Shown: one piece after another, positions 5,552 to 55,098 of the stretch
How the letters are laid out: each line of letters opens with the position of its first letter
How positions within the stretch are numbered: position 1 is the stretch's first letter
DNA from: Patescibacteria group bacterium
GTDB lineage: Bacteria > Patescibacteriota > Patescibacteriia > Patescibacteriales > WJLG01
DNA length: 64,000 bases
Direction: 5' to 3'
Assembly (NCBI GenBank): GCA_028716485.1
Contig: JAQUPS010000006.1
Span: 651 to 64,650 of the forward strand
Position numbers and translations under genes: made by a program
Notes under the pieces: model-generated
The model's input: only the letters and a program-made list of their open reading frames with translations
Told to the model about the DNA's origin: nothing
Databases searched by the model: none

Positions 5552-6133
5552 ATGACCGAAGTGATTAAAAAAAAGACTCAGGAAGATGTCAAAAATCTTG
5601 CCAACATTAAGCAATTTATACTTGCCGAAGGCGTGCAGGAAAATGGCCCCGAGGTCAAAGCGATCCGCAAATTCGTGAAGAGCGGCGACATCGCCGACAT
5701 CCAGGAATATATCGACTCGGGAAAAATCGTTCAGATGGAAAAGCAGCACAACATCATCGTCGACACCGGACTTGAACAGATGGCGATGAGCCAATCCGGC
5801 GAGCGCGCGACTTCGCCAAATATCAATTACGGAATTTTAGGCACACACGTCACTCCGACACCGTTGCCGAGTTCGGTGATAGGGGATATCACTGAGGGAT
5901 TCCGGAAAATTGCCAGCAGCCGATCACACGATGCCAATGTCAGCTATATCGATTTCTTTTTTACCGCGGCCGACTGCAACGGAACCTATACGCAATTTGC
6001 GAACGTGATCGACGGCACCGGCACGCCGGGCAGCGGCATTTTGTGGAGCTACATCGCGCCGTCTCCGGCCTGGGTCAAGACAAACGCGCAAAGTCTTTTT
6101 ATCAGCTGCGAATATCATAATAATAACGCTTAA
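5552..6133 (+). CDS. phage-module hypothetical protein
   Basis: 193-aa ORF, 7 nt after the hub gene and 5 nt before the fibre gene. Confidence 0.5.
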   Translation: MTEVIKKKTQEDVKNLANIKQFILAEGVQENGPEVKAIRKFVKSGDIADIQEYIDSGKIVQMEKQHNIIVDTGLEQMAMSQSGERATSPNINYGILGTHVTPTPLPSSVIGDITEGFRKIASSRSHDANVSYIDFFFTAADCNGTYTQFANVIDGTGTPGSGILWSYIAPSPAWVKTNAQSLFISCEYHNNNA

Positions 6134-6138
6134 AATAT

Positions 6139-7599
6139 ATGGCACAGACCAAAGAAAATTACGCCTACGGCGACAATGGACTCTACCTGCAGATGAATCA
6201 GTCCGGGAAAAACGCGAACGATGCCGGCGGTTTTCGCGACACGATCAACGCGGCCGAAACCATCGGAATTTTAAAACCGGTTTTCTTGGATGATGCCACT
6301 GACAACTGGAAGTATGCCGATGCCGATGATACTGCCCGCCTAAAATTTGACGGCTTCAGTTTGGCGGCCGGGTCGGCAGGCGTGGCGATGCCGGCGCAAT
6401 GCTCGGGCGTGGTCCGCGGATTATCTTCGCTCGACCCTGGCAAAAAATACTACGTCCAGGATGACGGCACGATCGGAATTGTGCCCGGCACTAATTTGAT
6501 TTTAGTCGGCATCGCGATTAGTGCGACCGAACTCTTGATCATAAAAATAAATACGCCAGGCGATAAAGATTTTTTCGGCGACGGATCGGATGGTGACGTC
6601 ACGATCAGCGGCAACACAACTCTCAGCCGCGATATGTACTACAATAACCTGACGATCAATAATGGCGTTTGGTTAAATCCCGCCGGCTTCAAAATTTTTG
6701 TCAGAAATAAATTGACAAATAACGGCACGATCAAATCCAATGGCGGAGATGCCGGCGGTGGTGGCAATGGAACGAGTGCCAACCCTGGCAGTGGATCACC
6801 GGGCGGTACAGCTGGAACCGCAGGCGCAGCGGCTCACGGTGATGCTTCCCTGAAGGGATCTAAACCCGGACAGCCGGGAGGTGTTGGCGGATCGGGTGGG
6901 TACGCTGGGTCAAACGGTAGCGCGGCCGCGGCTCCAGGAAATGGAGTTCAGGAAACAAATTCATTGAGCCCGGTTGCCGGCGCAAGTTCTGGACCAGGTG
7001 GACAGGGCGGGGGATCAACTAGCAATAGCGGTGGTGGTTATTCGAGCAGCACTTCCGGGTCTGCTGCAGCTGCTCCGAATATCGGAGTAAGATGCAAAGC
7101 GATGATACAGCGCTTCCTAGAGGCAGCCGATGCAGTTTTAAGTTCATTCTCAAGATACGCCGGATCAAGTTCTGCCGGCGGAGGCGGTGGCGGCGGAGGT
7201 GGAGCGGGAACGAATGGGCAAGGATCTTATGCCGCTTCAGGCGGAGGCGGTGGCGGATCAGGTGGAAACGGCGGAAACATTTTTATTGCTGCGTATATCT
7301 TGATCAATAACGGAACCATCCAGGCCAACGGCGGAGCGGGCGGCAATGGCGGAAACGGCGGAAACGGATACAGTGATGGAAACGGTGCTGGCGGAGGCGG
7401 TGGCGGCGGAGCGGGCGGATCAGGAGGCCTAATTTATCTGTCATATTGGCTAATATCAACGCTCGGAACTGTTCAGGCGCTCGGCGGTACCAAAGGACTT
7501 AAGGGATCAAAAGGATCTCTCGGCCACGTCGCGGCGGCAGATGGAACCGACGGATCAGATGGTACAGCGGGAACCGTGACCTACAAGCAAATCTTATAA
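6139..7599 (+). CDS. glycine-rich tail fibre-like protein
   Basis: 486 aa with a globular N-terminus, then long GGxGGNGG tracts interleaved with NNGTI(K/Q)(S/A)NGG motifs. Last gene of the tail module. Confidence 0.6.
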   Translation: MAQTKENYAYGDNGLYLQMNQSGKNANDAGGFRDTINAAETIGILKPVFLDDATDNWKYADADDTARLKFDGFSLAAGSAGVAMPAQCSGVVRGLSSLDPGKKYYVQDDGTIGIVPGTNLILVGIAISATELLIIKINTPGDKDFFGDGSDGDVTISGNTTLSRDMYYNNLTINNGVWLNPAGFKIFVRNKLTNNGTIKSNGGDAGGGGNGTSANPGSGSPGGTAGTAGAAAHGDASLKGSKPGQPGGVGGSGGYAGSNGSAAAAPGNGVQETNSLSPVAGASSGPGGQGGGSTSNSGGGYSSSTSGSAAAAPNIGVRCKAMIQRFLEAADAVLSSFSRYAGSSSAGGGGGGGGGAGTNGQGSYAASGGGGGGSGGNGGNIFIAAYILINNGTIQANGGAGGNGGNGGNGYSDGNGAGGGGGGGAGGSGGLIYLSYWLISTLGTVQALGGTKGLKGSKGSLGHVAAADGTDGSDGTAGTVTYKQIL

Positions 7600-14904: not shown

Positions 14905-15495
14905 TTATTTTCTTAAAATTTTTATCCGTGAAATGTTTCTTAAATCAATCAGCCGGGAGGGCTTTCCTTTGATTGTTCCGGTGTCAATAATCAAATCGGG
15001 CTTGGTTGTTTTGAAATAGTGGCCGAGATTGCCGACTCGGTCAAGCTGTTTCTCGCCGCTGATATTCAAGCTGGTGGAAACGAGCGGCGCCCCCAGTTCT
15101 TTAATCATTTTAGTAAGAAATCCGCTCTTTGGCAAACGCGCCGCCACGCTGGACATTTGAGCTGAAACGTAGTTTGGCAGTACGGGTTTTTTGTTTAAAA
15201 TTACCGACACTTTCCCTGGCCAGATTTTCCGCAAATAGGCGGCCTGATTTTTGTCCACCTGAAAATATTTCCGTAGCATTTTAAAATCGGCAATCAAAAC
15301 CAGAAGCGGTTTTTTCTTTTTCCTTTTTTTTATCCGATAAATCTTATCGATCGCCTTTTTATCAAGAGCTAAACAGCCCAAACCATAGATCGTGTCGGTC
15401 GGATAAACGATAACTTTCCCCCTTTTCAAAAAATCGACGATCAAGCCGATTTCTTGCTTAGTTATTTTTTTTAAATTGGTTTTAATTGACTGCAC
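14905..15495 (-). CDS. tsaC: L-threonylcarbamoyladenylate synthase (TsaC/YrdC/Sua5 family)
   Basis: VIVYPTDTIYGLGCLA and STSLNISGEK motifs. Confidence 0.85.
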   Translation of the reverse strand: MQSIKTNLKKITKQEIGLIVDFLKRGKVIVYPTDTIYGLGCLALDKKAIDKIYRIKKRKKKKPLLVLIADFKMLRKYFQVDKNQAAYLRKIWPGKVSVILNKKPVLPNYVSAQMSSVAARLPKSGFLTKMIKELGAPLVSTSLNISGEKQLDRVGNLGHYFKTTKPDLIIDTGTIKGKPSRLIDLRNISRIKILRK

Positions 15496-15500
15496 AGTTT

Positions 15501-15547
15501 AATTCCCCTCCCCGGGAGGGGTGGCCGAAGGCCGGGGTGGGTTTCCC
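15501..15547. repeat. GC-rich double-hairpin element (family 2, intergenic copy)
   Basis: aattcccctccccgggaggggtggccgaaggccggggtgggttt shares aattcccctc / aggggtggcc / ggggtg.gtt blocks with 27681-27736. Confidence 0.6.
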
Positions 15548-16063
15548 TTAAATTAATGATTTAATATCTTTTAAGCTTCCAGATAAGAACGGCATCAAAA
15601 TTTTAGCGACTAATAATAAGGTTGGCGCGATTTTGGAATTTGTCAGCCAATTGCCGACCAAAGTTCCGGCTGGCGCATATTTGGCAACTACATACAAAAT
15701 CAAACCCATAACCAAAGCGCCGACGAATAATGTTAAGGCCGCTCCGGCCAGACGGTTGATTGATTTCAAAAATGGAATAATTGAAAGCAGGTTGTAAGTT
15801 TTGTCCAAGATTATAAAGATAAATTTAATCACCCAAGTGGCAACGACAAAAATTATGATAAAACTGACAACCTTGCCGATATTTTCATAACCGCCATACC
15901 AGTTTTGCGTAGCCGCGAACAGATTTAGATAAAAATGGCTGGCCAGCCAAGCGCCGGCAATCAAACCGACAAACGAACCAACCGCTTTTATTAAACCAGA
16001 AGTAAAACCGCGCAAAGCGCAACCGGCTAAGATGACGATTAAAATAATATCAAATCCTGACAT
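15548..16063 (-). CDS. cvpA: CvpA family membrane protein
   Basis: 171 aa with four TM helices. The N-terminus FDIILIVILAGCALRGFTSGLIK is typical of CvpA. Confidence 0.7.
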   Translation of the reverse strand: MSGFDIILIVILAGCALRGFTSGLIKAVGSFVGLIAGAWLASHFYLNLFAATQNWYGGYENIGKVVSFIIIFVVATWVIKFIFIILDKTYNLLSIIPFLKSINRLAGAALTLFVGALVMGLILYVVAKYAPAGTLVGNWLTNSKIAPTLLLVAKILMPFLSGSLKDIKSLI

Positions 16064-16088: not shown

Positions 16089-17561
16089 TTATTTTGCGGC
16101 CTCCAAGGCGACAAGCCGGGGAAAAAGAGATTTGCCTTTTTTGATTTGCGGTTCAGAAAATTGCTTTTGCAATTTCTGCGCGGTGGTTGGCATGAACGGT
16201 TCAAGCAAGAATGCGATATTTAGAATATTCTGGGCAATCGGTTCTAAAACTTTCTTGATTTCCGCTTTGTCTTCCATCTTCCAAGGCTTTTTCTCGGTCA
16301 GCATCACATCGCTGGCGGTAACTTTTGCCCAAAGCACGGCCAAAGCTTCGTCAAAAGCATATTGATTCATCTTCTCGGCAAATCCTGAAATAGAATTTAT
16401 GGTCGGTTTGTCCAGCTTAGTTTCAAGCGAATTCTTTTCCAGAAGAGTTGAAACGCGCGCGGCCAAATTTCCCAAGCCATTGGCCAAATCGGCCGTATAA
16501 AGTGTTTCCATCTTTTCAAAAGAAAAATCACTATCAGCGAATGGTTTGATTTCTTTCAATAGGAAATAACGTGTTGCGTCAACGCCGTATTTATTAATCA
16601 GTTCGGTCGGATTGATTACATTGCCGGTAGATTTTGACATTTTTTGCCCATTGATGCTGATGAAGCCGAAAACCAAGACCTGCTTGGAATTAGGCAATCC
16701 CGCCGACATCAGCATTGCCTGCCACATCGCTGTCTGCTGGCGCAGATTATCTTTTCCGCAAACCTGCAAACCCGGCCAGAATTCTTTGAACAAATCCCGT
16801 CGGGCTTCGCCCGCCGTAGCTTTGCCCTGCAAAGCGAAGGCCGGCCATCCTAAACACGAAATATAATTAACAAGTGCATCGAACCATACGTACATAACTT
16901 GTTGATTGTCTTGGGGCACCGGAATTCCCCAGGGCATTTTGGAAGCTAAGCGGGAGATGGAAAAATCTTCTAATCCCCTTTCCACAAAAGATTTGATTTC
17001 ATTCATCCGCCAGTCCGGCTTCACGAATTCCCGATTACTTTTATACAATTCCAATAAAGGTTTTTGATATTTGGAAAATTTGAAAAAATAATTTTCTTCG
17101 TCAATAATTTCCAGCGGCTTATTCGGATGCAGCGGGCAGCAGCCATTCACCAATTCCGAATCGGTTTTTTCCAGCTCGCAGCCCACGCAATATTTCACCT
17201 TATAGTTTTTTTTGTAAATATCACCGTTGGTTTCGCATAATTTCCAAAAAGCCTGCGCCGCCTGGATATGCTTTTCGTCCGTGGTGCGGATAAAATTGGT
17301 CACGCTCAAATTCAACAGCTCTTTCAAGCCGTGGAATTTGGCCGCGTATTCATCGCAATAAGTCTGCGGATCGATACCCGCCTCTATAGCCTTCTCGTAA
17401 ATTTTCTGGCCATGCTCGTCAGTCCCAGTATTAAAAAATACCTCGTCGCCTAAAAGCGCGTGCCATCTGGCAATGACGTCCGCCTTAATAATCTCCGCCG
17501 CAAACCCGATATGCGGATCAGCGTTGACGTATGGAAGGGTGGTGGTTATATAGAATTTCAT
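16089..17561 (-). CDS. metG: methionine--tRNA ligase
   Basis: PYVNADPHIGF (HIGH-type), zinc knuckle CVGCE...CCPLH, KMSKSTGN. Confidence 0.95.
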   Translation of the reverse strand: MKFYITTTLPYVNADPHIGFAAEIIKADVIARWHALLGDEVFFNTGTDEHGQKIYEKAIEAGIDPQTYCDEYAAKFHGLKELLNLSVTNFIRTTDEKHIQAAQAFWKLCETNGDIYKKNYKVKYCVGCELEKTDSELVNGCCPLHPNKPLEIIDEENYFFKFSKYQKPLLELYKSNREFVKPDWRMNEIKSFVERGLEDFSISRLASKMPWGIPVPQDNQQVMYVWFDALVNYISCLGWPAFALQGKATAGEARRDLFKEFWPGLQVCGKDNLRQQTAMWQAMLMSAGLPNSKQVLVFGFISINGQKMSKSTGNVINPTELINKYGVDATRYFLLKEIKPFADSDFSFEKMETLYTADLANGLGNLAARVSTLLEKNSLETKLDKPTINSISGFAEKMNQYAFDEALAVLWAKVTASDVMLTEKKPWKMEDKAEIKKVLEPIAQNILNIAFLLEPFMPTTAQKLQKQFSEPQIKKGKSLFPRLVALEAAK

Positions 17562-18045: not shown

Positions 18046-18055
18046 ACTGCATTTT

Positions 18056-18088
18056 ATAGATCCCTCGCCCGGGGCTCGGGATGACAAA
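18056..18088. repeat. family-1 palindromic element, solo half copy
   Basis: atagatccctcgcccggggctcgggatgacaaa is the reverse complement of the tttgtcatcc...ggatctat unit seen at 27339 and 37409. Confidence 0.65.
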
Positions 18089-24880: not shown

Positions 24881-24979
24881 TTGTGGGAGACTATTTAATG
24901 CTAAATGCTAAATGCTAAATTATATACAATGATTTAGCATTTAGCATTCATCGTTTAGCATTTTGTCGATTTACCACAA
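24881..24979. repeat. 7-nt periodic inverted repeat (aatgcta / atttagc units) closed by ttgtgg/ccacaa
   Basis: Left arm 24897-24920 and right arm 24932-24962. Same unit as 28086-28131. Confidence 0.75.
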
Positions 24980-27338: not shown

Positions 27339-27474
27339 TTTGTCATCCCGAGCCTCTGGCGAGGGATCTATATTGGACAAATGTAGGGCCTCAAAGACCA
27401 AAATTTTTGCCACCTAAGTGATTATTGTTTGGATAATAGATCCTTCTCCGCCAGGGGCGGATCAGGATGACAAA
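27339..27474. repeat. family-1 composite palindromic element (MITE-like, 136 bp)
   Basis: tttgtcatcccgagcctctggcgagggatctat (27339-27371) and its inverted partner (27436-27474) flank a 64-nt core containing aaatttttg. Confidence 0.7.
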
Positions 27475-27481
27475 AAAATTC

Positions 27482-28078
27482 ATGATATTAGGAATTAAAA
27501 AGCTCCACGAATTGGTAGAGGAAATAAAATTAGTGGAAGGTTTGTGCGAGCGGGAAATGAACAATCCCGAAGGCGCGGGCTTTGATTTACGCTTGAGCGA
27601 GGTTTATCAGCTCGAGGGTGACGGATTTTTGGGCGTGGAAGAGCGGCAAACTCCGGCGGCTAAATTGATTGCTAAAGCAAAAAATTCCCCTCTCGAGAGG
27701 GGTGGCCAGCCCCTGGCTGGACGGGGTGTGTTAAACGCCGGCGATTCAGAAGATGCTTTCGTTTTTCAACCCGGCAAATATTATTTGATCAAGACGATGG
27801 AAAAAGTTAATCTGCCGACCAATCTTTCCGGCATTATTTTTCCCCGCACTACGATGTTCCGTTCCGGAATCGGGATGTTCAACGGCATAGTCCAGCCTGG
27901 CTATTCCGGCGAATTGACTTTCGGCGTCTGTAACCTTGGCCAATCCAATATTAAAATTTCTTTTGGCGCCCGCGTCGCCCATATCACTTTCCACGAAGTC
28001 CTCGGCGAGGGCAATCAATACAAAGGCCAATGGCAAGGCGGCCGCGTTTCTACCGGAGCCAAGGAAACTCAAATATGA
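27482..28078 (+). CDS. dcd: dCTP deaminase / dUTPase-superfamily protein
   Basis: MILGIKKLHELV start, GFDLRL, PRTTMFRSGI, VQPGYSGELTFGVCN. The track start at 27467 lies inside the repeat. Confidence 0.75.
   Translation: MILGIKKLHELVEEIKLVEGLCEREMNNPEGAGFDLRLSEVYQLEGDGFLGVEERQTPAAKLIAKAKNSPLERGGQPLAGRGVLNAGDSEDAFVFQPGKYYLIKTMEKVNLPTNLSGIIFPRTTMFRSGIGMFNGIVQPGYSGELTFGVCNLGQSNIKISFGARVAHITFHEVLGEGNQYKGQWQGGRVSTGAKETQI
27681..27736. repeat. family-2 double-hairpin element lying inside the dcd reading frame
   Basis: aaaattcccctctcgagaggggtggccagcccctggctggacggggtgtgtt encodes KNSPLERGGQPLAGRGVL. Confidence 0.55.
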
Positions 28079-28085
28079 AATTAAT

Positions 28086-28131
28086 AATGCTAAATGCTAA
28101 ATTTTTTATTTAGCATTTAGCATTTAGCATT
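28086..28131. repeat. 7-nt periodic inverted repeat (aatgcta / atttagc)
   Basis: Left arm 28086-28102 and right arm 28108-28131. Ends 2 nt before the thyA ATG. Confidence 0.75.
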
Positions 28132-28133
28132 AA

Positions 28134-29123
28134 ATGCAACATCCCGAACAACAATACCTCGACCTAATGCGCGATTTGCTTAAAAATGGCATTGAGCAAG
28201 TCGATGCCGGCACCGGCGTAAAGACTTATTCCCTTTTCGGGCGGCAAATCCGTTTTGATTTAAGCCAAGGCTTCCCGCTTTTGACGACCAAAAAAATATT
28301 TTGGCGCGGAATCGTGGAAGAAGTTTTTTGGTTTTTATCCGGCCAAAATAATATTAAATATTTAGTTGATAAAAATATTCACATTTGGGACGACTATCCT
28401 TACCGCATTTACCGGGAAAAAATGGCAACGGGGCAGGAAAAGGAAATGACCAAAGAGGAATTTATCGCCCAGATCGCCGCCGATAATGATTTTGCCGCCG
28501 AACACGGCGCTTTGCCGCATATTTACGGCGATATGTGGCGTCATTGGCCGACTCGAGCTGGCAAGACGATTGACCAGGTTCAATGGGTCGTCGATACTTT
28601 AAAAAAAGACCCAAGCGCGCATAATGCGCTGGTTAATTCCTGGAATCCCGAATATCTTTATGAAATGGCCGCGCCGGGCGAAGCCTGCCGCTTCCCGATC
28701 TGCCATAATTTATATCAAGTGAGCGTTCGCGGGGATAAATTGTTCCTACAGCTTTATCAGCGCACGGCTGACATATTTTTGGGCGTGCCTTTTAATATCG
28801 CCTCCTATGCGCTTTTGACAATAATTCTGGCGCAGATAATCGGTTATCAGCCGGGCGAATTCATCCATACTTTCGGCGATGTCCATTATTATGAAAATCA
28901 TCGCGAGGCAATCAAAGAACAATTGACCCGCGAACCGCTCCCCTTTCCGACTGTAAAATTAAATTCCAATGTTAAAAATATCGATGATTTCAAGCCGGAA
29001 TCTGTCGAACTTGTCGGTTATGAATCGCATCCGCCGATCAAAGCCGAACTTTCTCCTACCGGCGGCATCGTCGATAAATCCTGGAAAAAATTCGTGCAAG
29101 ATGAGAAGTCGAATAAAAAATAA
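28134..29123 (+). CDS. thyA: thymidylate synthase (ThyA)
   Basis: QQYLDLMRDLL start, FPICHNLYQ active-site Cys, and the DIFLGVPFNIASYALL motif. Confidence 0.95.
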   Translation: MQHPEQQYLDLMRDLLKNGIEQVDAGTGVKTYSLFGRQIRFDLSQGFPLLTTKKIFWRGIVEEVFWFLSGQNNIKYLVDKNIHIWDDYPYRIYREKMATGQEKEMTKEEFIAQIAADNDFAAEHGALPHIYGDMWRHWPTRAGKTIDQVQWVVDTLKKDPSAHNALVNSWNPEYLYEMAAPGEACRFPICHNLYQVSVRGDKLFLQLYQRTADIFLGVPFNIASYALLTIILAQIIGYQPGEFIHTFGDVHYYENHREAIKEQLTREPLPFPTVKLNSNVKNIDDFKPESVELVGYESHPPIKAELSPTGGIVDKSWKKFVQDEKSNKK

Positions 29124-31011: not shown

Positions 31012-31178
31012 TCTACGAATTCAGATAATCGAATTAGTAACAAAAATCATCAAATCTTCGCTTGATTTTTACCTATAAAAAGATTAAAATGAATATATCG
31101 ACCGGATACTATCAAGGCTTAACAAAATTCTGTTTATCAAATTTTTAACTTTCAACTTTTCATTTTAAATTGATTTAT

Positions 31179-32687
31179 ATGGAATACGACATTATCATCG
31201 GCATGGAAATCCACGCCGAGCTGAAAACCAAGTCCAAAATGTTCTGCCGCTGCGATAACAATGCGCGGGGAGCCGATCCGAATACCAAGACCTGTCCGAT
31301 CTGCCTTGGTCATCCCGGCACTCTACCCTACCCCAACCAGCAAGCCATCGAATGGACCGTGCTCTTGGGCTTGGGCTTGCATTGCCATATCAATGAATTT
31401 TCCAAATTCGACCGCAAGAATTATTTTTATCCCGACTTGCCCAAAGGCTATCAGATTTCGCAATTTGAAATTCCGTTCTGCTCCGGCGGCTGGCTGGATA
31501 TCGACGGCGAAAAAATTGCCATCACCAGAATTCATTTGGAAGAAGACACGGGAAAATCAACGCACCCGGCCGGCAAAAATTATTCTTTGATCGATTTGAA
31601 CCGCGCCGGCACGCCGCTGATTGAGTTAGTTACCGAACCGGTCATCCGCACGGCGGAAATGGCCAAGAAATTCTGCCAACGTTATCAGCAAATTTTGCGC
31701 TATCTGGATATTTCCAACGCCGATATGGAGCAGGGCGAAATGCGCTGCGAAGCCAATATTTCCCTTCAGGAAAAAGGCAAATGGCTTTACGAAGACGGCC
31801 TGATCAAACCGGTCGGCGACTACAAATTAAATCCCAAAGTCGAATTGAAAAATATCAATTCTTTCCGCGCCGTGGAAAAAGCGGTTTTATATGAAGTCGA
31901 GCGGCAGAAAAAAGCTTTAGCTTCCGGCGAGGAATTGCGCCAAGAAACAAGAGGCTGGAACGAAGAATCCGGCAAAACCGTCCATCAGCGCTTCAAAGAA
32001 ACTTCGGCTGATTATCGCTACTTCCCCGAACCGGACATTCCGCCGCTGAAATTTTCCGGCCAGATGATTTTGGAAATCAAGGCTAAACTGATCGAATTGC
32101 CTTCCGAGAAAAAAATCCGCTTCATCGATGAATACGGTTTTGACGCTATCACCGCGGAAATTTTAGTATCCGACAAGGCGCTGGCCGATTACGCCGAGCA
32201 CGTCGTTTCCGAATTGGAATCCTGGATTGTTTCCTGCGGCGATACCTGGGAACGGCAGAAAAATAAGCTGGCCAAATTGGCAAGCAATTATCTGATCAGC
32301 GAATTATTCAAACATCTCAAAGCCAACAATCAGACCATCCGCGATATCAAAATATCCGCGGAAAATTTCGCCGAGCTGATGACTTTGGTTTATCAAGACA
32401 AAATAAATTCTTCCGCCGCGCAGACGATTTTGGGCGTGATGTATGCCAAAGGTTCTGATCCGACCGACGTGATGTATGAACTCGGTCTGGAACAGATGGA
32501 CGACACCGCCGTCCTCGAAGCTGTCGTCAATTCTGTCTTGGCCGCCAATCCCGACCAGGTTGCCCAATACAAAGCCGGCAAGACTAATGTCGCCCAATTC
32601 CTCGTCGGCCGCGTGATGGCGGAAACCAAAGGCAAAGCCAATCCAAAGAAAGTACAGGAAATAATAGGAAAAATTTTGAAATCTTAA
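31179..32687 (+). CDS. gatB: Asp-tRNA(Asn)/Glu-tRNA(Gln) amidotransferase subunit B
   Basis: MEYDIIIGMEIHAELKTKSKMFC...CPICLGHPGTLP...HLEEDTGK. C-terminal YqeY-like tail. Confidence 0.95.
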   Translation: MEYDIIIGMEIHAELKTKSKMFCRCDNNARGADPNTKTCPICLGHPGTLPYPNQQAIEWTVLLGLGLHCHINEFSKFDRKNYFYPDLPKGYQISQFEIPFCSGGWLDIDGEKIAITRIHLEEDTGKSTHPAGKNYSLIDLNRAGTPLIELVTEPVIRTAEMAKKFCQRYQQILRYLDISNADMEQGEMRCEANISLQEKGKWLYEDGLIKPVGDYKLNPKVELKNINSFRAVEKAVLYEVERQKKALASGEELRQETRGWNEESGKTVHQRFKETSADYRYFPEPDIPPLKFSGQMILEIKAKLIELPSEKKIRFIDEYGFDAITAEILVSDKALADYAEHVVSELESWIVSCGDTWERQKNKLAKLASNYLISELFKHLKANNQTIRDIKISAENFAELMTLVYQDKINSSAAQTILGVMYAKGSDPTDVMYELGLEQMDDTAVLEAVVNSVLAANPDQVAQYKAGKTNVAQFLVGRVMAETKGKANPKKVQEIIGKILKS

Positions 32688-39112: not shown

Positions 39113-39147
39113 GCTTTTAACTTTTCACTTTTAACTTTTAACTTCGT
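39113..39147. repeat. five tandem 7-nt units (gctttta acttttc actttta actttta acttcgt) abutting the gyrB ATG
   Basis: Read directly. Same unit type as 23319-23353. Confidence 0.7.
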
Positions 39148-41181
39148 ATGACCAATAAAGAACTTGAAAAAAAGAAAAAAGAATCGACTTATGACGCCAG
39201 TTCCATCACTGTTCTGGAAGGCTTGGAGCCGGTCAGAAAACGTCCTGGAATGTATATCGGCTCAACCTCCTCGACTGGTTTGCATCATTTGATTTGGGAA
39301 GTGGTCGACAACAGCATTGATGAAGCCATGGCCGGATTTGCTAATTATATCACAGTCTCGCTTTTACCCGACGGCTTAGTGGAAGTTATCGATAACGGCC
39401 GCGGCATCCCTGTGGGAAAGCATAAGGCCACCGGTGTTTCCGCCTTGGAAACCGTCTTGACCAAATTGCATGCCGGCGGAAAATTTGGCGGCGAAGGCTA
39501 TAAAGTTTCCGGCGGTTTGCACGGAGTCGGCGTATCAGTGGTCAATGCCTTGAGCTCGTATCTTAAAGCTGAAGTCCATCTCGACGGCAAAGCTTGGGTG
39601 CAGGAATACGGCAAGGGCAAGCCCAAGGGAGCGGCCAAAGCGGTCGGCAAAGCGGAAGGAACCGGCACAACCATCACTTTTAAAGCTGATGACACCATCT
39701 TCACCGAGTTGGAATATGACTGGGAAAAAATACTTACCCGTTTGCGTCAGCAGGCCTATCTTACCAAGGGTATCACCATCGAAGTCAATGATAAGCGAGT
39801 CAAGACCAATGAAAAAAAATACAAATTCCATTTCGAGGGCGGCATTATGGCTTATGTCAAGGCGCTGAACCGCAACAACGCGGTCAAACACGATAATATT
39901 TTTTACGTTGACAAGGATATTGATGATTGCAAAGTGGAAGTCGCCTTACAATACAACGATGAATTCAACGAATTAGTTCTGCCGTTCGCCAATAACATCC
40001 ACAATGTCGAAGGCGGCACGCATGTCATCGGTTTTAAAACCGCCCTTACCAGAACTTTGAATAACTACGCCCGCAATCATAATTTGATCAAAGAAAAAGA
40101 TGAAAACTTGACCGGCGAGGATGTGCGCGAAGGCTTGACCGCGGTGATCAGCGTCAAATTGAAAGACCCGCAATTCGAAGGCCAGACCAAGGCTAAGCTG
40201 GGCAACGCGGAAATAAAAACCGCGGTGGAACAGGTTTTCGGCACGGCCTTTGCCGATTTTCTCGAAGAGCATCCCAAGGACGCCGAAGCGATCATCGGCA
40301 AGTGCGTCCTGTCGGCGATGGCCAGGCTGGCCGCCCGCACAGCCCGCGCCTCCATCTTGCGCAAAGGCGCGCTGGAAGGCATGACTTTGCCGGGAAAATT
40401 AGCTGATTGTTCCAGTAACAAACCGGAAGGATGCGAATTATACATCGTCGAGGGCGACTCGGCCGGAGGTTCAGCCAAACAGGGTCGCGACCGCCGCTTC
40501 CAAGCCATTCTCCCCCTGCGCGGAAAAATTTTAAATGTCGAGCGCGCCCGTCTGGACAAGATGCTTGCCAATAATGAAATCAAAAATCTAGTCATCGCCT
40601 TGGGAACCAATATCGATGAGCAATTTGATTTAACCAAGTTGCGCTATCATCGCATCATCATTATGACCGATGCGGACGTTGACGGCGCTCACATCCGGAC
40701 TTTGCTTTTGACTTTATTCTATCGCCATTTCGAACAATTAGTGACGAGCGGACATATGTATATCGCTCAGCCGCCTTTGTATCAGATCAAGAAAGGCGCG
40801 CAGATCGAATATGCTTATTCTGATGAGGAGAAAATAAATATCATCAAAAAATTGGGCGGCAATGTCGAGGAAATCGAGGAAATTGCCGAGGGTGATGATT
40901 TAACCGAGCCCGCCTCTGCTCCAGAGGACGGAGCTTCGACGGGCAAGGGAAATAAAGCCGTATCTTTGCGTATTCAGCGCTATAAGGGTTTGGGCGAAAT
41001 GAATCCGGAACAGCTTTGGGAAACTACGATGGATCCGGCTCGCCGCATCTTAAAACAAGTTACCTTAGACGATGCTCAATCGGCCGACGAAATTTTCGAC
41101 ATGCTGATGGGCGACGATGTCGCGCCCCGCAAACACTTCATCCAGACGCATGCCAAGAAAGTAAAAAATTTGGATATATAG
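39148..41181 (+). CDS. gyrB: DNA gyrase subunit B
   Basis: YDASSITVLEGLEPVRKRPGMYIG, the GHKL ATPase domain, the Toprim EGDSAGG motif and the PLRGKILNVE motif. Confidence 0.97.
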   Translation: MTNKELEKKKKESTYDASSITVLEGLEPVRKRPGMYIGSTSSTGLHHLIWEVVDNSIDEAMAGFANYITVSLLPDGLVEVIDNGRGIPVGKHKATGVSALETVLTKLHAGGKFGGEGYKVSGGLHGVGVSVVNALSSYLKAEVHLDGKAWVQEYGKGKPKGAAKAVGKAEGTGTTITFKADDTIFTELEYDWEKILTRLRQQAYLTKGITIEVNDKRVKTNEKKYKFHFEGGIMAYVKALNRNNAVKHDNIFYVDKDIDDCKVEVALQYNDEFNELVLPFANNIHNVEGGTHVIGFKTALTRTLNNYARNHNLIKEKDENLTGEDVREGLTAVISVKLKDPQFEGQTKAKLGNAEIKTAVEQVFGTAFADFLEEHPKDAEAIIGKCVLSAMARLAARTARASILRKGALEGMTLPGKLADCSSNKPEGCELYIVEGDSAGGSAKQGRDRRFQAILPLRGKILNVERARLDKMLANNEIKNLVIALGTNIDEQFDLTKLRYHRIIIMTDADVDGAHIRTLLLTLFYRHFEQLVTSGHMYIAQPPLYQIKKGAQIEYAYSDEEKINIIKKLGGNVEEIEEIAEGDDLTEPASAPEDGASTGKGNKAVSLRIQRYKGLGEMNPEQLWETTMDPARRILKQVTLDDAQSADEIFDMLMGDDVAPRKHFIQTHAKKVKNLDI

Positions 41182-45530: not shown

Positions 45531-45707
45531 AATCCGAAACGAATTAGAAATACTAAGCGCGAAATTCGAAATAAATTGTTATCAACAAGATATAGCGTAA
45601 ATTTTGGAGCTTCAGCCGTTTCGGATTTTGTATTTCGTTTTTCGGATTTACGAAGTTCGTAGTATTCGGATATTTTGTAGATTCGGATTATATTTTTTTA
45701 TTCCGCG
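45531..45707. repeat. periodic inverted repeats (aatccga/tcggatt and tacgaa/ttcgta units)
   Basis: aaatccgaaacgaatt...cgaaattcgaaat on the left faces gtttcggatttt...tttcggatttacgaagttcgtagtattcggat...attcggatt on the right. Confidence 0.65.
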
Positions 45708-48077: not shown

Positions 48078-48815
48078 CTAAGCCCATCTGGCGCTTAAGA
48101 ATATCAAAAGCAAAAAAATAAATCCGGATGCCAAGTATAATTTAACGCTGCGGCCAGTTAATTTTTCCGCCAGCGATAATTTAACGAAACTGATTAGCAA
48201 ATAATAGCAGATGACGGCGATCAATCCCAAGGCATTGTAATTAAAAGGCAGAAAATAAACGGCCCAGGCAAGCTCGACGAGCAGAAGTCCGGCCAGAAAG
48301 GCATAGGCGAGCATATTTTCGGCCTGGATTTTATTGGCCCACAGAATTTGATAAATTATCAGAATCATTGCCGCGCCCGAGCATAAAATCAAGAGCCAGA
48401 TCGGCAAACCAAGAAAAGATTCCAAGCCGTAAATAACCGAAAAGCAGAAAAAGACGGTCAGCAGGTTGCCATAAGCGGAAATATTTTCCAAAAAATCCCG
48501 CTGGGCGCCGCGATAAATATTTTTTAAATAAAAGTAGGTGAAAAAAAGATTCAGAACGAACAAAAGATGGATCAAGGTATGATTGACGGCCAATAACGAA
48601 TAAGCGGCCAAGGAGCTGGAAAAGAGAATGGGGAAAATCGAAAAATTCCAAAAATCTCTGCTGATAATTTTTTTTCCGGTTATTATCCGCACCGCCAGCA
48701 AGAGCAATAAATCGGAAATGAGTATCACGGCGTAAAATAAATTAGCCTTGAAGAAAAACACTTCAAAGAGGATGAAATTCAACAACGGAGTAATGATAAT
48801 TACAAAGTAAACCAT
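48078..48815 (-). CDS. multi-pass membrane protein, hypothetical
   Basis: 245 aa with ~8 TM helices. Confidence 0.55.
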   Translation of the reverse strand: MVYFVIIITPLLNFILFEVFFFKANLFYAVILISDLLLLLAVRIITGKKIISRDFWNFSIFPILFSSSLAAYSLLAVNHTLIHLLFVLNLFFTYFYLKNIYRGAQRDFLENISAYGNLLTVFFCFSVIYGLESFLGLPIWLLILCSGAAMILIIYQILWANKIQAENMLAYAFLAGLLLVELAWAVYFLPFNYNALGLIAVICYYLLISFVKLSLAEKLTGRSVKLYLASGFIFLLLIFLSARWA

Positions 48816-48842
48816 TTTTTATAACAAGGTATAATTATACCA

Positions 48843-49095
48843 TTAATTAATCGACCAATTGTATTTCAATTTAATCACAGCTTGATTGATTTTATTCGGT
48901 TGACATTCAAATCCATTGAATATCACGCCTATTTTGTTACTACATCAAGCCTGATTTTTGTGTTTCAAACATTGCGCCATCGCTATATCCCGCATGGCTT
49001 TTTCCGCATCAATTCTTCAGCCGTATTTTTCCTGAAAATTTTTAATATCAGTCAAATTACTGATTATGTATTTATTAATGTCAATTAAGGTGATC
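48843..49095 (-). pseudogene. degraded 4th copy of the C-terminal cassette
   Basis: Minus-strand reading gives MITLIDINKYIISNLTDIKNFQEKYG*RIDAEKAMRDIAMAQCLKHKNQA*CSNKIGVIFNGFECQPNKINQAVIKLKYNWSIN*. It has two in-frame stops and is truncated after KLKYN. Confidence 0.7.
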
Positions 49096-49108
49096 ATTTA
49101 TAATCTTT

Positions 49109-49225
49109 TAAAATCCTGAAAAATTATGAATAATATCCTTATAGTGAAAAAAGGCAAAATTGAAATTAAAATCATCACTAAAAACGAAAACAAAATAATT
49201 GTTATTTTTTTTCTTTAAACTTTCC
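49109..49225 (-). CDS. 38-aa remnant of a small ORF (MESLKKK...)
   Basis: My own translation. The N-terminus resembles MENLKKK of 50231-50551. Below the ORF-track size threshold. Confidence 0.3.
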
Positions 49226-49232
49226 ATAAATT

Positions 49233-49550
49233 TTAAAATTTACTGATTAAATATTTTATATCCTCTTTTATTATATTATACCCCGCCTGATTAATCCATT
49301 TAGTGAGCAAAAACACATTCAATTTGGTTAAAATCAGATTGTATTTTAATTTAATTAACGCTTGATTAATTTTGCTAAACTGATATTCGAACCTGTCAAA
49401 TGTTTTTCCAATTTTTGCATCGCACCAGGCTTGATTTTTATGCTTCAAACATTGCGCCATGGCTTTGTCCCGCATTACTTTTTCTTTATCGATTCTCTGG
49501 CCGTATTTTTCCTGGAAATTTTTAATAACTGAGGACTGCGCCGGAACCAA
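49233..49550 (-). CDS. orphan C-terminal cassette 3
   Basis: From IKNFQEKYGQRIDK onward it is collinear with the last ~95 aa of the 1503-aa protein. The 5' homology is shorter than in cassette 2. Confidence 0.55.
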   Translation of the reverse strand: MVPAQSSVIKNFQEKYGQRIDKEKVMRDKAMAQCLKHKNQAWCDAKIGKTFDRFEYQFSKINQALIKLKYNLILTKLNVFLLTKWINQAGYNIIKEDIKYLISKF

Positions 49551-49583
49551 AATAGCTGAATTAAAACAAATAACCCGGCTTTT

Positions 49584-49832
49584 TTAGCCCAAAGGAATTA
49601 AATTGGTGTTACCATTATATAAATTTATTATAGCGAAAACTAATAAAATAAAATAAAATAAAATAAAATAAAATAAATGGCGTTTTTTATCGCCTAACTT
49701 AATCAGCAAAAATGGAAATATGAAAATAAAATAAACAATGTAGATAAAAATATCAAACAAATGAAAGACAAATAACAAAAGAAAAGGAATTAAAAATAAC
49801 AAGAAAATTATAACTTCTTTGTACTTTTTCAT
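49584..49832 (-). CDS. small very hydrophobic F/L/I-rich membrane protein (cassette partner 2)
   Basis: 82-aa ORF 4 nt downstream of cassette 2. Contains the (TTTAT)7 tract. Confidence 0.5.
   Translation of the reverse strand: MKKYKEVIIFLLFLIPFLLLFVFHLFDIFIYIVYFIFIFPFLLIKLGDKKRHLFYFILFYFILLVFAIINLYNGNTNLIPLG
49643..49677. repeat. pentanucleotide microsatellite (ATAAA)x7 inside a CDS
   Basis: Seven perfect units counted. Encodes FYFILFYFILL on the minus strand. Confidence 0.9.
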
Positions 49833-49836
49833 AAAT

Positions 49837-50184
49837 TTAGTTTAATTTATTAATTAAATATTTTACATCCTCTCTAATCATATTATATCCTGCTTGATTA
49901 ATCCATTTTACCCGCAAATATACATCCAATTTGGTTAAAATTAAATTATATTTTAATTTAATCAAGGCTTGATTAAATCTGCTAAGCTGATATTCAATTC
50001 TGTTGAATATCTTTCCGATTTTTGCATCGCACCAGGCTTGATTTTTATGCTTCAGGCATTGAGCCATTGCCTTGTCCCGCATCGTCTTTTCTTTATCGAT
50101 TCTTTGACCATATTTTTCCTGAAAATTTTTAATGTCGGTCAAATCGTTGATTAAACCATTCTTTGCTTCAACTTTTGTGATCAT
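49837..50184 (-). CDS. orphan C-terminal cassette 2
   Basis: 115-aa ORF. DNA homology to the main gene extends upstream of its ATG to ~50222. Confidence 0.6.
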   Translation of the reverse strand: MITKVEAKNGLINDLTDIKNFQEKYGQRIDKEKTMRDKAMAQCLKHKNQAWCDAKIGKIFNRIEYQLSRFNQALIKLKYNLILTKLDVYLRVKWINQAGYNMIREDVKYLINKLN

Positions 50185-50230
50185 TTTCTCGTCATAGGCG
50201 CGATTGACATCGGTAATTGTGCCAATATTT

Positions 50231-50551
50231 TTACAATATCGTCATGTGACCAAAAGCATTTATTAGACCCATGTAGGTATATATATATATAGCAATATAC
50301 GGAATAATTAAAAATAAAATGATAAAAATTATTTTACTGATTATTTTTTTTAAACCAGACAATCTAAACGGAATAAAAAATAAAAATGGGTGAGTAAATA
50401 GTAAATAAAACCCCAGGTATCCGGAAAAATCAAAATTATCACTACGGCCATTTTTACCTAAAAATAGAGCTATAAAAAAAATAACAAAGAAAGACACCCA
50501 ATAAAGCAATGCTGGCGCGAACATTTTAATTTTTTTCTTTAAATTTTCCAT
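50231..50551 (-). CDS. small hydrophobic membrane protein (cassette partner 1)
   Basis: 106-aa ORF 5 nt downstream of the giant gene, with 3 TM helices. Contains a (TA)7 tract at 50278-50291. Confidence 0.55.
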   Translation of the reverse strand: MENLKKKIKMFAPALLYWVSFFVIFFIALFLGKNGRSDNFDFSGYLGFYLLFTHPFLFFIPFRLSGLKKIISKIIFIILFLIIPYIAIYIYTYMGLINAFGHMTIL

Positions 50552-50556
50552 AAGTA

Positions 50557-53500
50557 TTATAACTTACTAATTAAATATTTCATATCACCCCTTATTATAT
50601 TATATCCACTCTGATTTATCCATTTAGTGCGCAAAAACACATCCAATTTGGTTAAAATCAGATTATATTTTAATTTAATCAGGGCCTGATTGATTTTATT
50701 AAGCTGATATTCAAATCTATCAAATATCGTATCTATTTTCTTAGTACACCAGACTTGATTTTTATATTTCAAGCATTGAGCCATGGCCTTATCCCGCATG
50801 ACTTTCCCTTTATCAATTCTTTGACCGTATTTTTCCTGAAAATTTTTAATGTCAGTCAAATCGTTGATTAAACCATTCTTTGCTTCAACTTTTGTGATCA
50901 TTTTCTCGTCATAGGCGCGATTGACATCGGCAATCGTACCATTAATATCAGTGATTACGGAAAAATTAATGATTTGTTCGGCTTGATTTCCGGCTAAATC
51001 TTGAATAGCGATTTTAACCTGATGCGAGCCGAGATTTTGTTTAAATAAATCAATGGTGTTTGAGTTGATAGTCTGGCCATTAAAATAAATTTTGGCGGTG
51101 GCAGTATTAATGCCGGAAAAATTATCAGCTGCGAAATACTCAACGTCCAGCGCGTTATTGCGCAAAACTTCCTGGCCTTCCTGCGGCAACAAAACGCTGA
51201 TAATTGGTTTGATTTGATCTACTTCTATAGTCGCTGTTTGATTCGCTTCTTGATTTCCCGCCTTATCGATGGAACGGTAAATAATATTATGTTCGCCGTC
51301 TCCTGACAAAATTATCTTATCTACATAATCCTGCCAGACCTGGCCGTCATCCAAACTGTATTCAGTTTTCAGAACTCCGGAATTGTCATCGGTGGCGGAT
51401 AATTTTATCTGGACATCGGAAACATAATAGCCGTTATTGCCAGCTTGACCGGAAATGTTTATAGTCGTTTGCGGAGCGGTCAGATCGTTTATTTGTTCAC
51501 CGGTGAGCACCGAATCCGGGGCTATAGTTTTATCAATCGTACCATCACCATTAGAATCAACTTTGGCCAAATACTGCGTTTGGTTATCGGAAATATCATA
51601 TTCAACATTGGCAGCGGCAGAATCAAGCTTGACCGAATCAAAATAAGCGAATTGGATTGGCTGGCTATTTTCTATTTTTTGAATCGTAATACCTAACTCG
51701 CCGCTGGAAGTGGCTTGGTTGACGACGCGGTAAGAGTGGCCGGCTGGCAAAAACGCATATTTATCATTACCTAAAATATCATAAGTTACGCCGGGAATAT
51801 TTTCTTCAATATCACCGTCGACGGTCGGACCGGTGTGATTGCCATTTTCATCATAGATATTTAATTCTACCGGGCTGTGAGAACCGACTTGGGTTCCGTT
51901 AATACTTTTACAAATTCTCTGCTGGTCTTGGCTTTGACCTAAATTTGAATATTGCGAAAAATTAAAATTATTTTCATTACCGCTCAAAATTGACGTGACA
52001 AGTTGGCGAACGCCGTTTGCGCTTGGAATATAGCCATGGGTTGTGGCATTGGTATAATATTGATGGCTACCGAATGGAATGGCGCTTTTTAGAGGCACCG
52101 TGCCATCGCCGTCAACCGGAGGCAATGCCCAATTTCCATTGCCTTTTTTCTCTACCCCGGCATAGGTGGCTTGACCGCAACCGATGATATTATAGTAATT
52201 GTCAGAATTGGGTAGATTGTCTATCCTGCTATGCAATTCATCGTTGACATTGACTGCGTTTATTCCAACATAACCGAGTAAAAAATTATTTCTTCCTTGA
52301 TCGTTTAAAAATGACATTGACTGATCATAATTGAGCGGACTTAAAATGCCAACGTTCTGATTGCCACCGGCGATATCGTAGATGTAGCTACTGGTTATGG
52401 GAAGGCCGGGAATGTCTGATTCAAAATATTTACGGCTGGGAAGAAGTTGATAAATGGAGGGCATGTTTTGGGAAATAGACTTAACTTCATCTGGATTTAA
52501 TCTAAATATCCCAGAAAAATTTATATCCAAATCATCTCCATAATTCAATATTTTAAAAGCGCTTGGCGAACCTAAATGCGGCGTAGCAATATCAATAAAT
52601 TTATCAATGTTATCATTGCCATTTTTATCAATGTAGTCCTTGACCAATAATCCACCCATACTGTGGGCAATAATATCCACTTTTTCTGCGCCGGTTTGAT
52701 TTTTTATATCAATTATTTTTTGTTTTAAAGTTGCTTGCCAAATGGACTGACTGTCACCAGTAGTCGAATCAAGATTCATCCGCCAATCATAGGGAAAAAC
52801 AAATAAATCTTTATTCTCTTCGTAACCATTATTTTCTAATTCTTCTATCAACCCCCTAAAAAAATCTCTATCAATTAAAACTTTTCCTATAATTTCAAGA
52901 TGCACATCTCTAAAAATATCTGCCGAATTTGCTATCGGATTATTCTCGTCTTGATTCCCGTATTGATCCAATTTTAACGCGTTCAAATAACTATCCGACC
53001 CCGGCAATGCCATTAGCGCAAAATTCGGCCAAAGCTCGTCGCCAGAAAGATAATCCTTTAAATAACTCCCCAAAATCCCCGGCACGATGATTACCGGATT
53101 GCGCGCGAGCGAAAAATCCGTAGCAACGGCAGGGTTGCTCATTGTTTGCCAGGCCGAGGCATTGCTTTGCGAATCCACCGCTCTTGCCTGCCAGTGATAT
53201 TGGTCATTTGATAAATTCAATAAAGCTACCGAAGCAATCTGACCGGAAGCGACAAAACTACTGGTCGCGGTGGGCACGCCGGTAAATGCGGTTCCTGATG
53301 GTTGGACTTCAACCTGCAACTGCGTCTGGTTGTTCGCGGGGTTAGTTAGCGTGCCCCGAAACACCACAATGTTTTCTGTGATGCTTACGCCCACGGAAAT
53401 CGGAGTTGTGCCGTCAAACCTAAACTGACCGAGATTAGAAAGTTGGGGAATTGGAATTGTCCCGTTATTTGTTATCGTGATTTGCTCCGAACCGCTAACC

Positions 53501-55068: not shown

Positions 55069-55098
55069 AAAAATATTAATATCAACGTTGATGACTTA

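Follow-up and report, generated by a model that had tools for sequence, protein, structure and literature searches.

An in-frame double-hairpin repeat in the dCTP deaminase gene of a Patescibacteria bacterium, from a repeat family associated with DUF559 nuclease genes

The dcd gene of a Patescibacteria group bacterium (assembly GCA_028716485.1), which encodes a dCTP deaminase/dUTPase-like protein, carries a GC-rich double hairpin within its reading frame, and a second copy of this structure lies between two other genes of the same stretch of 64,000 nucleotides (contig JAQUPS010000006.1, positions 651 to 64,650 of the forward strand). This whole stretch is referred to here as the window, and coordinates without a locus name are counted from its first letter. 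The insert is most probably a solo copy of a widespread structured DNA module that became lodged in dcd, and the spread of this module would be linked to genes encoding endonucleases of the DUF559 family.

The module is approximately 35–60 nt long, and has the consensus (A)ATTCCCCTC(C)-loop-(G)GAGGGGTG, followed by a GC-rich hairpin of free sequence and a terminal GGGGTG(G/T)(G)TT. The copy in dcd (27683–27732, plus strand; 50 bases, with the core TCCCCTC...GGGGTG at 27686–27728) begins with AATT (27683–27686), which is followed by hairpin 1 (27687–27702), in which CCCCTC (27687–27692) pairs with GAGGGG (27697–27702) around the loop TCGA, and, after TG and a single G, by hairpin 2 (27706–27720), in which CCAGCC (27706–27711) pairs with GGCTGG (27715–27720) around the loop CCT. 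The copy is completed by AC, the block GGGGTG (27723–27728), and the tail TGTT, which ends at 27732. Hairpin 1 is the sequence-conserved stem of the family, and hairpin 2, positioned between both GGGGTG blocks, is the variable, covarying stem. The intergenic copy (15501–15543, plus strand) consists of AATT (15501–15504), CCCCTCC (15505–15511) paired with GGAGGGG (15515–15521) around CCG, a single T, GGCC (15523–15526) paired with GGCC (15530–15533) around GAA, GGGGTG (15534–15539), and the tail GGTT, which ends at 15543. The dcd copy belongs to subfamily type A (CTCT/AGAG...TGTGTT), and the intergenic copy to type B (CTCC/GGAG...TGGGTT). The letters of both segments, and the blocks they share, read as they were given in the preliminary description of this DNA.

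These segments are two copies of one structured repeat, with a similarity that is well beyond chance. In a formal test, the Smith-Waterman alignment of the two loci scored 35, against 12.2 +/- 2.3 for composition-preserving shuffles, none of which reached 35 in 5000 trials. The pattern CCCCTC-N3-9-GAGGGG is found at only two sites in the 64 kb, both of them module copies, against an expectation of 0.01, and none of 100 shuffled sequences contained two such sites; the 11-mer GAGGGGTGGCC also occurs exactly twice, and when one mismatch was allowed, two or more matches were obtained in 6 of 100 shuffles. Minimum-free-energy prediction gives both hairpins on either strand, which, together with the covariation of the variable stem in the family, bears out the earlier claim that two hairpins are preserved. 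Taken singly, the sequences have modest z-scores (-2.1 to -0.2), and the structural support must therefore come from the comparison of the family, rather than from the two folds in the window. No further copies were found in the 64 kb with one mismatch allowed per block, Rfam returned nothing meaningful for the whole window at gathering thresholds or for 27600–27800 at E values of up to 10, and a run of T 3' of the hairpins is absent from both window copies. An origin of the repeat from a tRNA or tmRNA was rejected, none having been detected in the window.

The host gene (27482–28078, plus strand) encodes 198 amino acids from a conserved MILGIKK start, and its product matches the Pfam profiles DCD (3.8e-21) and dUTPase (2.1e-11), as well as sequences in the PDB. 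The predicted model of the protein matches 4xjc in Foldseek (E 1.4e-11, TM 0.66/0.78), and the profiles and the model place the protein in the dCTP deaminase/dUTPase superfamily, with a predicted trimeric dUTPase-like beta fold. The gene lies in a dTMP-synthesis cluster, flanked by those for a dCMP deaminase and ThyA, and the protein is 100% identical to a 198-residue protein of a Patescibacteria metagenome-assembled genome (MAG). The mechanical open reading frame (ORF) has 203 codons and begins at ATG 27467, which falls inside a different repeat, the GGATGACAAA end of a third hairpin family, and is therefore probably a false start. The true start is likely to be the ATG at 27482 (MILGIKK), as in all the orthologs and the 198-residue database entry.

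The length of the dcd copy is a multiple of three and it contains no stop codons, so that it would be read through as a Gly/Pro/Arg-rich loop of 16–17 residues, of the composition first proposed for it. It encodes N73–L89 of the 203-codon frame (NSPLERGGQPLAGRGVL), with the last codon, TTA, extending to 27733, and the peptide stretch of the insert region reads NSPLERGGQPLAGR. The length of the loop, measured between the conserved ExxTP and PGKYYL motifs in 118 anchorable homologs, is 22 residues in 69 (67 scored directly, together with P0043 and P0091, 182-residue proteins that the anchor pattern had misplaced) and more than 22, up to a maximum of 52, in about 49, with 38 in the window protein. 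The 182-residue orthologs lack the segment altogether, and the empty site of one relative (L009) reads straight through at the DNA level, so the residues in question are missing from orthologs that are free of the repeat, and the proposal of an in-frame insertion, made from the window alone, holds. In the AlphaFold model, residues 74–94, between the strands at 65–70 and 97–100, form the sole internal segment with a predicted local distance difference test score (pLDDT) below 50; the insert is thus predicted to be a disordered surface loop within an otherwise confident dCTP-deaminase fold, as had been suggested. The insert was recovered independently in different samples and assemblies (an NCBI MAG, JGI contigs, and ENA contigs). 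These comparisons indicate strongly that, in an ancestor shared by this organism and the relatives nearest to it, the module was inserted as DNA into the stretch of dcd that codes for the loop; the insert would then be translated as a loop which the enzyme tolerates. Removal of the insert at the RNA level, as a mini-intron, was considered, and seems improbable, as all of the in-gene copies examined stay in frame and contain no stop codons.

The divergence of dcd from a 90%-identical ortholog (L002) is characteristic of a functional gene. Outside the module, 81 of 171 third positions differ (47%), against 8% of the residues, and by these evolutionary criteria dcd is functional and under purifying selection. 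Inside the module the pattern is reversed, with changes from L002 at only 3 of 17 third positions (Fisher p = 0.02 in comparison with the 81 of 171 found in the remainder of dcd), whereas the peptide has 8 differences from L007 in its 17 residues, compared with 15 in the other 171 (p = 2e-4), and 4 differences from L001 in 15, compared with 14 in 171 (p = 0.04). The differences are concentrated in the second hairpin, where the pairing is kept, with GCCAGCCCCTGGCTGGAC in the window, GCGCGGAGCGCC in L001, and CCGAGCCCGGCGAGGC in L007. Judged from these substitution patterns, the constraint on the insert acts on the nucleic acid, and not on the peptide.

The same loop of Dcd has received repeats in a number of other lineages of the Candidate Phyla Radiation (CPR). 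The module is found there in the orientation of the window in L001, L002, and L007, with second hairpins that are different, yet paired, and members of the same family occupy the loop in the opposite orientation in L005 and L006, which come from two different samples, as a result of either a separate insertion or inversion at the site itself. Short forms with a single hairpin are present in L008 (reverse) and L003 (forward), and the loop of L001 contains a reverse-plus-forward, or inverted, doublet. In L210 (protein P0030; L210:10175–10303), the loop is occupied by an unrelated 87-nt hairpin (-42.5 kcal/mol) with the letters GTCATTGCGAG...CTCGCAATGAC, translated as CHCEKAEPTKQS...EIALPEARNDN (peptide CHCE...EIA...RNDN), other copies of which are found near L210:6300 and L211:2040, with 14-mers also present in loci from the Verrucomicrobiota, Flavobacterium, Pelosinus, and the Bacteroidales. 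At the protein level, a loop peptide similar to SSAKATADK occurs in 11 Dcd homologs. Given that this loop took the module family repeatedly, and other repeat families as well, it is a permissive hotspot rather than the site of a single event, and the sequences show a site in which several families of hairpin repeat appear to have lodged independently in different CPR lineages. A 10-residue variant of the loop, NPxCxxGxExKGV (21 sequences; L211), was tried as a further repeat-derived insert and rejected, as it has a weak hairpin and no convincing repeat copies. One homolog, P0045, has a different insert, PSTGSGQA, in another loop, between YELE and GFLG (columns 80–87 of alignment A1), which looks like yet another translated GC-rich repeat.

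The intergenic copy in the window occupies the entire 52-nt spacer between two genes on the minus strand, from the stop of a CvpA-like gene (15548) to the GTG start of a Sua5/TsaC-like gene (15495). The former (15548–16063) encodes a CvpA/Colicin-V-production-like membrane protein, with its stop abutting the copy, and the latter (14905–15495) lies directly downstream; the syntenic genes of L005 match the Pfam families Colicin_V and Sua5_yciO_yrdC, respectively. In L005 and L006, the CvpA-like and Sua5-like genes abut, with zero spacer, and the absence of the spacer from both relatives indicates that the intergenic copy is also an insertion. Given that its neighbor genes are on the minus strand, this copy is transcribed in the orientation opposite to that of the dcd copy. 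Read on the minus strand, its GGAGGGG precedes the GTG start codon of the Sua5-like gene by 9 nt.

Beyond the window, the module was searched for with the pattern TCCCCTC-N3-10-GAGGGGTG-N4-30-GGGGTG in one genome per GTDB species, which recovered at least 119 matching stretches from the Bacteroidota, Cyanobacteria, Acidobacteriota, Verrucomicrobiota, Chlamydiota, Firmicutes, Proteobacteria, Planctomycetota, and Patescibacteria, including, among the matches listed, one in a Rickettsiales MAG (L083). The same pattern is found in viral contigs of IMG/VR, a collection that contains prophage predictions, and many of the contigs among the matches listed have several copies. By our own estimate, a few tens of matches would be expected by chance in 596 Gb at uniform composition. 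As the pattern itself imposed the conserved blocks, only features outside it count as independent evidence, that is, the pairing of the second hairpin, the AAT and GTT flanks, and the DUF559 neighborhood. When 150 unique copies were tested on regex-anchored pieces, the segment between the GGGGTG blocks paired into a stem of 4 bp or longer in 81% of them, a share that fell to 11% on shuffling, and 115 distinct sequences were represented. The 5' flank is AAT in 43 of the 150 copies, the 3' tail is mostly GTT, GGT, or TGT, and two subfamilies recur across phyla, one with CTCT/AGAG and a TGTGTT tail, the other with CTCC/GGAG and a TGG(G)TT tail. An alignment of 113 copies with MAFFT and RNAalifold was set aside and its pair counts were not used, as variable loop lengths had shifted hairpin 1 out of register.

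A copy in a Paceibacteria MAG (L037), inside a sugar-transferase gene, is nearly identical to the dcd copy, including the second hairpin (GTCAGCCTCTGGTTGGAC), and the near identity of copies in unrelated genes points to their recent common ancestry. Other hosts of in-frame copies, confirmed by Pfam, include the linker of DNA polymerase I (L039), the homogentisate dioxygenase HgmA (L031), the GAD domain of AspRS (L042), TopA of a Nomurabacteria MAG (L029), a BNR/T9SS protein (L101), an Eco57I-like methylase (L020), and two Type ISP restriction enzymes (L128 and L036), and both orientations and all three frames are represented among the in-gene copies. In the GatB of the CPR relatives L001 (8950–8980) and L010 (9686–9716), a short form, TCCCCTCCTTCCGAAGGAGGGGCT(A/G)GGGGTG, is inserted in frame at one shared position, where it encodes SPPSEGG(AR)GG, and the site is empty in the GatB of the window (31149–32684), L003, and L009. 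A blastn search of the GenBank phages and PLSDB plasmids with one consensus module found no match, this 45-nt query with a single second hairpin being a weak probe. Taken together, the matches show a module family that is spread across bacterial phyla, rather than being specific to the CPR. The repeat was initially discussed in connection with the CPR, and while it does occur in a CPR genome, its presence in many bacterial phyla and in viral contigs means that it is not a peculiarity of that group.

The one gene found to recur next to the module is that encoding DUF559. DUF559, Vsr, and the homing endonuclease I-Bth0305I form one clade of PD-(D/E)XK nucleases (PMC3424549, PMC3239194). The nuclease domain of the cassettes matches Pfam DUF559 at an E value of about 1e-29, and in our alignment of the DUF559 proteins (A3) the catalytic-type residues E60, D62, H66, and D75 are invariant. 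Among the matches listed, a DUF559 ORF lies within 130 nt of the module in 8 of the approximately 119 loci sampled through the module (about 7%). The usual cassette consists of a forward module with its GGGGTGGTT tail toward the gene, 20–80 nt, the DUF559 gene, and a reverse module (AACCACCCC...GGAGGGGAATT), which is often of the short form, and a degenerate version of this layout is found in the CPR relative L009. In an independent sample, taken to guard against circularity, 80 metagenome loci were picked by DUF559 homology alone; of these, 38 have a forward module no more than 250 nt upstream, 27 have a reverse module no more than 250 nt downstream, and 18 have both, whereas the background density of modules in the same loci, 0.12 per kb, predicts about 1.3 loci per category (binomial p <1e-27). 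The counts of modules in the wrong orientation are also raised (14 and 17), due in part to doublets and in part to the fuzzy pattern, which sometimes calls one palindromic site on both strands. Of the 56 ORFs located between neighboring module pairs, 10 encode DUF559, the only cargo that recurs (no other cluster has more than two members), and it fills 7 of the 11 forward–reverse pairs that are spaced by 251–700 nt. Empty forward–reverse doublets are numerous, with 32 that have a gap of up to 60 nt and 15 with a gap of 61–250 nt, and solo modules and empty doublets are far commoner than full cassettes. These counts show a strong and specific association between the module family and neighboring DUF559 genes, in an inverted-end layout.

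The two Type ISP genes have modules on either side of a DUF559 domain that is embedded in them. These Bacteroidota-like Type ISP/MmeI-like ORFs (L128:711–3539 and L036:2508–4166) contain a complete DUF559 and its flanking modules in frame, the Type_ISP_C match is split in two, and the nuclease cassette appears to have become an additional domain of the host protein. Close to the syntenic region in one CPR relative, a small 23S_rRNA_IVP gene, which encodes a four-helix bundle, was found at L003:56–418. This small gene family tends to sit among such repeats, and it is not a recurrent cargo between the module pairs.

The reading that we favor, in which dcd received a solo copy of the module, would be explained as follows. 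In many genomes, modules bracket the gene of a DUF559 (Vsr-like) endonuclease as the inverted ends of a cassette, and the module would be an end, or a derivative of an end, of such a selfish cassette, being spread, or at least mobilized, by endonuclease-initiated recombination or homing involving DUF559, which may act on hairpin or cruciform DNA. The survival of copies in genes would result from selection for those that preserve the frame in loops and linkers. A broader version, which we offer tentatively and hold to be somewhat doubtful, is that modules and DUF559 cassettes constitute a pan-bacterial selfish class, with a minimal Vsr-like endonuclease gene between structured, stop-free inverted ends; solo ends and doublets would scatter, including in the CPR and in phages, and the ends, which are translatable in every frame, would repeatedly seed loops and linkers in essential proteins and, in the Type ISP enzymes, bring in a whole nuclease domain in frame. 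A number of points weigh against the favored reading. The second hairpin varies among copies of one genome, which is unusual for copy-and-paste elements, such as miniature transposable elements with inverted repeats (MITEs), the conserved blocks of the cross-phylum sample were imposed by the search pattern, and conservation across phyla could reflect a conserved cellular function. No consistent target-site duplication, direct repeat, or exact junction was found at 26 two-ended cassettes, which is a weak negative, given that their ends are uncertain, and the flanks of the cassettes often just prolong the inverted repeat (for example, aaaagc/.../gcttttt in L074). There is no DUF559 gene within the 64-kb window, which contains only two copies of the module, and DUF559 is not known to move DNA.

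In the main rival reading, the modules make up a repeat family of their own that spreads by some other route (hairpin-mediated template switching, gene conversion, and a different enzyme being examples), and the DUF559 genes are not its agent of spread, but free-standing homing genes that target module doublets. We consider this possible, if rather unlikely. The abundance of empty doublets with short spacers (the 32 of up to 60 nt and the 15 of 61–250 nt) would supply the targets, the location of DUF559 exactly between inverted modules is the classic geometry of a homing gene within its own target, most modules are solo, with DUF559 in only about 7% of the module-sampled loci, and Vsr-like nucleases are known homing enzymes (PMC3239194). 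This rival leaves unexplained the arrival of solo modules at new sites, such as the dcd loop, and no other recurrent neighbor gene was detected. It is considerably less probable that the module is mainly a functional cis-element, such as an mRNA-stabilizing or processing hairpin, a terminator-like structure, or a ribosome-binding site (GGAGGGG/CCCCTCC) sequestered in a hairpin, with the in-gene copies as by-products. The blocks conserved across phyla, the nucleotide-level constraint in the dcd copy, and the GGAGGGG located 9 nt upstream from the Sua5-like GTG would all fit such a function. An RNA signal should, however, be strand-specific, and a cis-regulatory role is made less likely by the occurrence of the module in both orientations relative to transcription, with window copies that are transcribed oppositely and in-gene copies in both orientations and all three frames; the hairpins lack a following T-run, no Rfam family matches, and a mobile element is a better match for the presence or absence of the module at orthologous sites and for its clustering near a nuclease gene. 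It is extremely improbable that the segment is an ancestral variable loop of Dcd, a resemblance due to chance or composition, or an artefact of assembly. The length of the loop does vary among orthologs, and the 10-residue NPxCxxGxExKGV variant (21 sequences) has no repeat signal in its DNA (L211), but the same DNA module is intergenic in the window and present in unrelated genes and phyla, the L005 copy, in opposite orientation, cannot be a variation of the same ancestral peptide, chance is contradicted by the alignment test (0/5000 shuffles), and the insert recurs in independent samples and assemblies (NCBI MAG, JGI, and ENA contigs). For the module-bearing sequences, these tests exclude all three.

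A comparison with known elements places the solo module closest to small repeats of a mobile type. In the account given in PMC10969869, after Ogata et al. 2000, Rickettsia palindromic elements (RPEs) are about 100–150 bp long, are reported from Rickettsia, and encode conserved peptides; they are described there as palindromic repeats inserted in frame in conserved housekeeping genes and tolerated at the protein surface, which also occur between genes. The dcd insert was originally described as RPE-like, and the likeness stands for its behavior, that is, a tolerated in-frame insertion that leaves a conserved gene intact, at a predicted surface position, with intergenic copies as well. It does not extend to membership of the family, given that size and host, and probably sequence, differ. 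The module is only 35–60 nt long (about 50 in the dcd copy), occurs in many phyla, has a free second stem, and is linked to DUF559, and its peptide, unlike those of the RPEs, is unconserved, with 27–47% of the residues differing between close relatives. Compared by behavior only, the RPE likeness is thus supported as an analogy, and not as a homology.

The REP and REPIN repeats (REP, repetitive extragenic palindromic) are extragenic, lineage-specific sequences, the associated gene of which encodes the RAYT transposase, an enzyme of the IS200/IS605-like Y1 (HUH) type. The module is similar in being a short, GC-rich imperfect palindrome that forms many +/- and -/+ doublets with gaps of up to 60 nt, and in flanking a single associated gene. 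It differs in that it is also intragenic (in dcd, PolA, HgmA, AspRS, TopA, and GatB), in that its blocks are common to many phyla, and in that its sole recurrent neighbor is the Vsr-like PD-(D/E)XK nuclease, DUF559. RAYT was not among the ORFs that recur between module pairs, where no profile search aimed at it was made. The MITEs (Correia/NEMIS, ERIC, and Nezha) are small, non-coding, multi-copy, inverted-repeat elements, which sometimes form in-frame fusions within genes (PMC10969869, PMC3184786). The module shares these features, including the occasional in-frame intragenic position, and a putative larger, gene-bearing relative, the DUF559 cassette, would have the same ends. In contrast with the MITEs, the module is below their typical size, no target-site duplication was found, and the candidate parent has no known transposase; a solo module is, in addition, only one end of the DUF559 cassette, and second hairpins differ within a genome.

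The DUF559 cassettes, rather than the dcd insert, invite comparison with the Vsr-like (EDxHD) homing endonucleases, such as I-Bth0305I, which have NUMOD or helix-turn-helix DNA-binding domains and are found in introns, inteins, and fractured genes (PMC3239194; Dassa et al., PMC2677866). The two belong to the same nuclease clade (PMC3424549), with conserved catalytic-type residues, and the DUF559 genes, like those of the homing enzymes, would be selfish genes in or next to conserved genes. The DUF559 proteins of the cassettes differ in being stand-alone domains of ~110 residues between structured inverted modules. We know of no cleavage activity for these proteins. The small dispersed repeats of cyanobacteria are reportedly 21–27 nt long, located in hairpin contexts, nested, and seemingly mobile, as Elhai and colleagues are said to have described in 2008. 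They are like the module in being tiny, hairpin-embedded units, and differ from it in sequence, and neither a nuclease association nor a spread across phyla is known to us in their case. Overall, we rate the module as belonging with the small palindromic, mobile-type repeats that insert in frame. In the full texts searched, coverage of which is incomplete, neither the module, nor in-frame repeats of the CPR, nor a link between DUF559 and a repeat is described anywhere. Gly/Pro/Arg-rich peptides like these are a familiar sort of noise in annotations, and the DNA element may thus have been seen before, but not characterized.

If this interpretation is correct, one small DNA module would account for many of the Gly/Pro/Arg-rich, low-complexity inserts and spurious "hypothetical proteins" found in metagenome annotations across phyla, and even the most streamlined genomes, those of the CPR, would accept selfish DNA within their core enzymes. 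The insertions would also chart naturally which loops are permissive, those of Dcd and GatB being examples, and offer a route from mobile DNA to new protein loops, linkers, and domain fusions, while the large, orphan DUF559 family would gain a concrete role as the nuclease of a structured-end cassette. The recognition of the module would help gene calling, as the probably false upstream ATG of dcd, inside another repeat, illustrates, and the trimming of alignments in CPR phylogenomics.

A number of other repeats were observed in the window. The third hairpin family, with the structure (T)ATAGATCC-stem-loop-stem-GGATGACAAA, is represented at 27339–27372, 27437–27475, and 18055–18088. The copies at 18055–18088 and 27339–27372 are 94% complementary, and those at 27339–27372 and 27437–27475 form an inverted doublet between the dCMP deaminase gene and dcd. 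A perfect 28-nt inverted repeat, ATTTAATGCTAAATGCTAAATGCTAAAT, built from a short tandem unit of the TGCTAAA type, has its arms 3.2 kb apart, at 24893–24920 and 28108–28135; the second arm is in the spacer between dcd and thyA, and the two arms bracket the dCMP deaminase–dcd region.

A scan of the window for GC islands returned 151, a lack of selectivity that is due to the 44% GC content of the genome, and provided two leads only. Inside the MetRS ORF (16089–17561, minus strand), a GC-rich hairpin at 16787–16827 (-10.5 kcal/mol) encodes ...FALQGKATAGEARRDLF..., which resembles the SSAKATADK-type inserts of the Dcd loop, and may be another in-frame repeat insertion. Inside a GyrB-like ORF (39142–41178, plus strand), the hairpin GAGCCCGCCTCTGCTCCAGAGGACGGAGCTTC, at 40898–40937 (-18.3 kcal/mol), encodes ...TEPASAPEDGAS..., and may be another translated hairpin insert.

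A 39-nt inverted repeat (GTTCGTAGTATTCGGATATTTTGTAGATTCGGATTATAT), with arms that are 95% complementary and 17.4 kb apart, is located at 45655–45693 and 63138–63176. Four diverged copies of a 300-nt unit, with 60–82% identity to the reference copy and a spacing of 480–717 nt, are found at 48751–50854 and 53738–54624. A 1512-residue ORF (50560–55095, minus strand) contains multiple repeats with a period of about 130–150 nt, and its product is probably a repetitive surface protein. The 490-residue ORF at 6127–7596 has long Gly-rich GGxGG tracts, which form the direct-repeat family D4.

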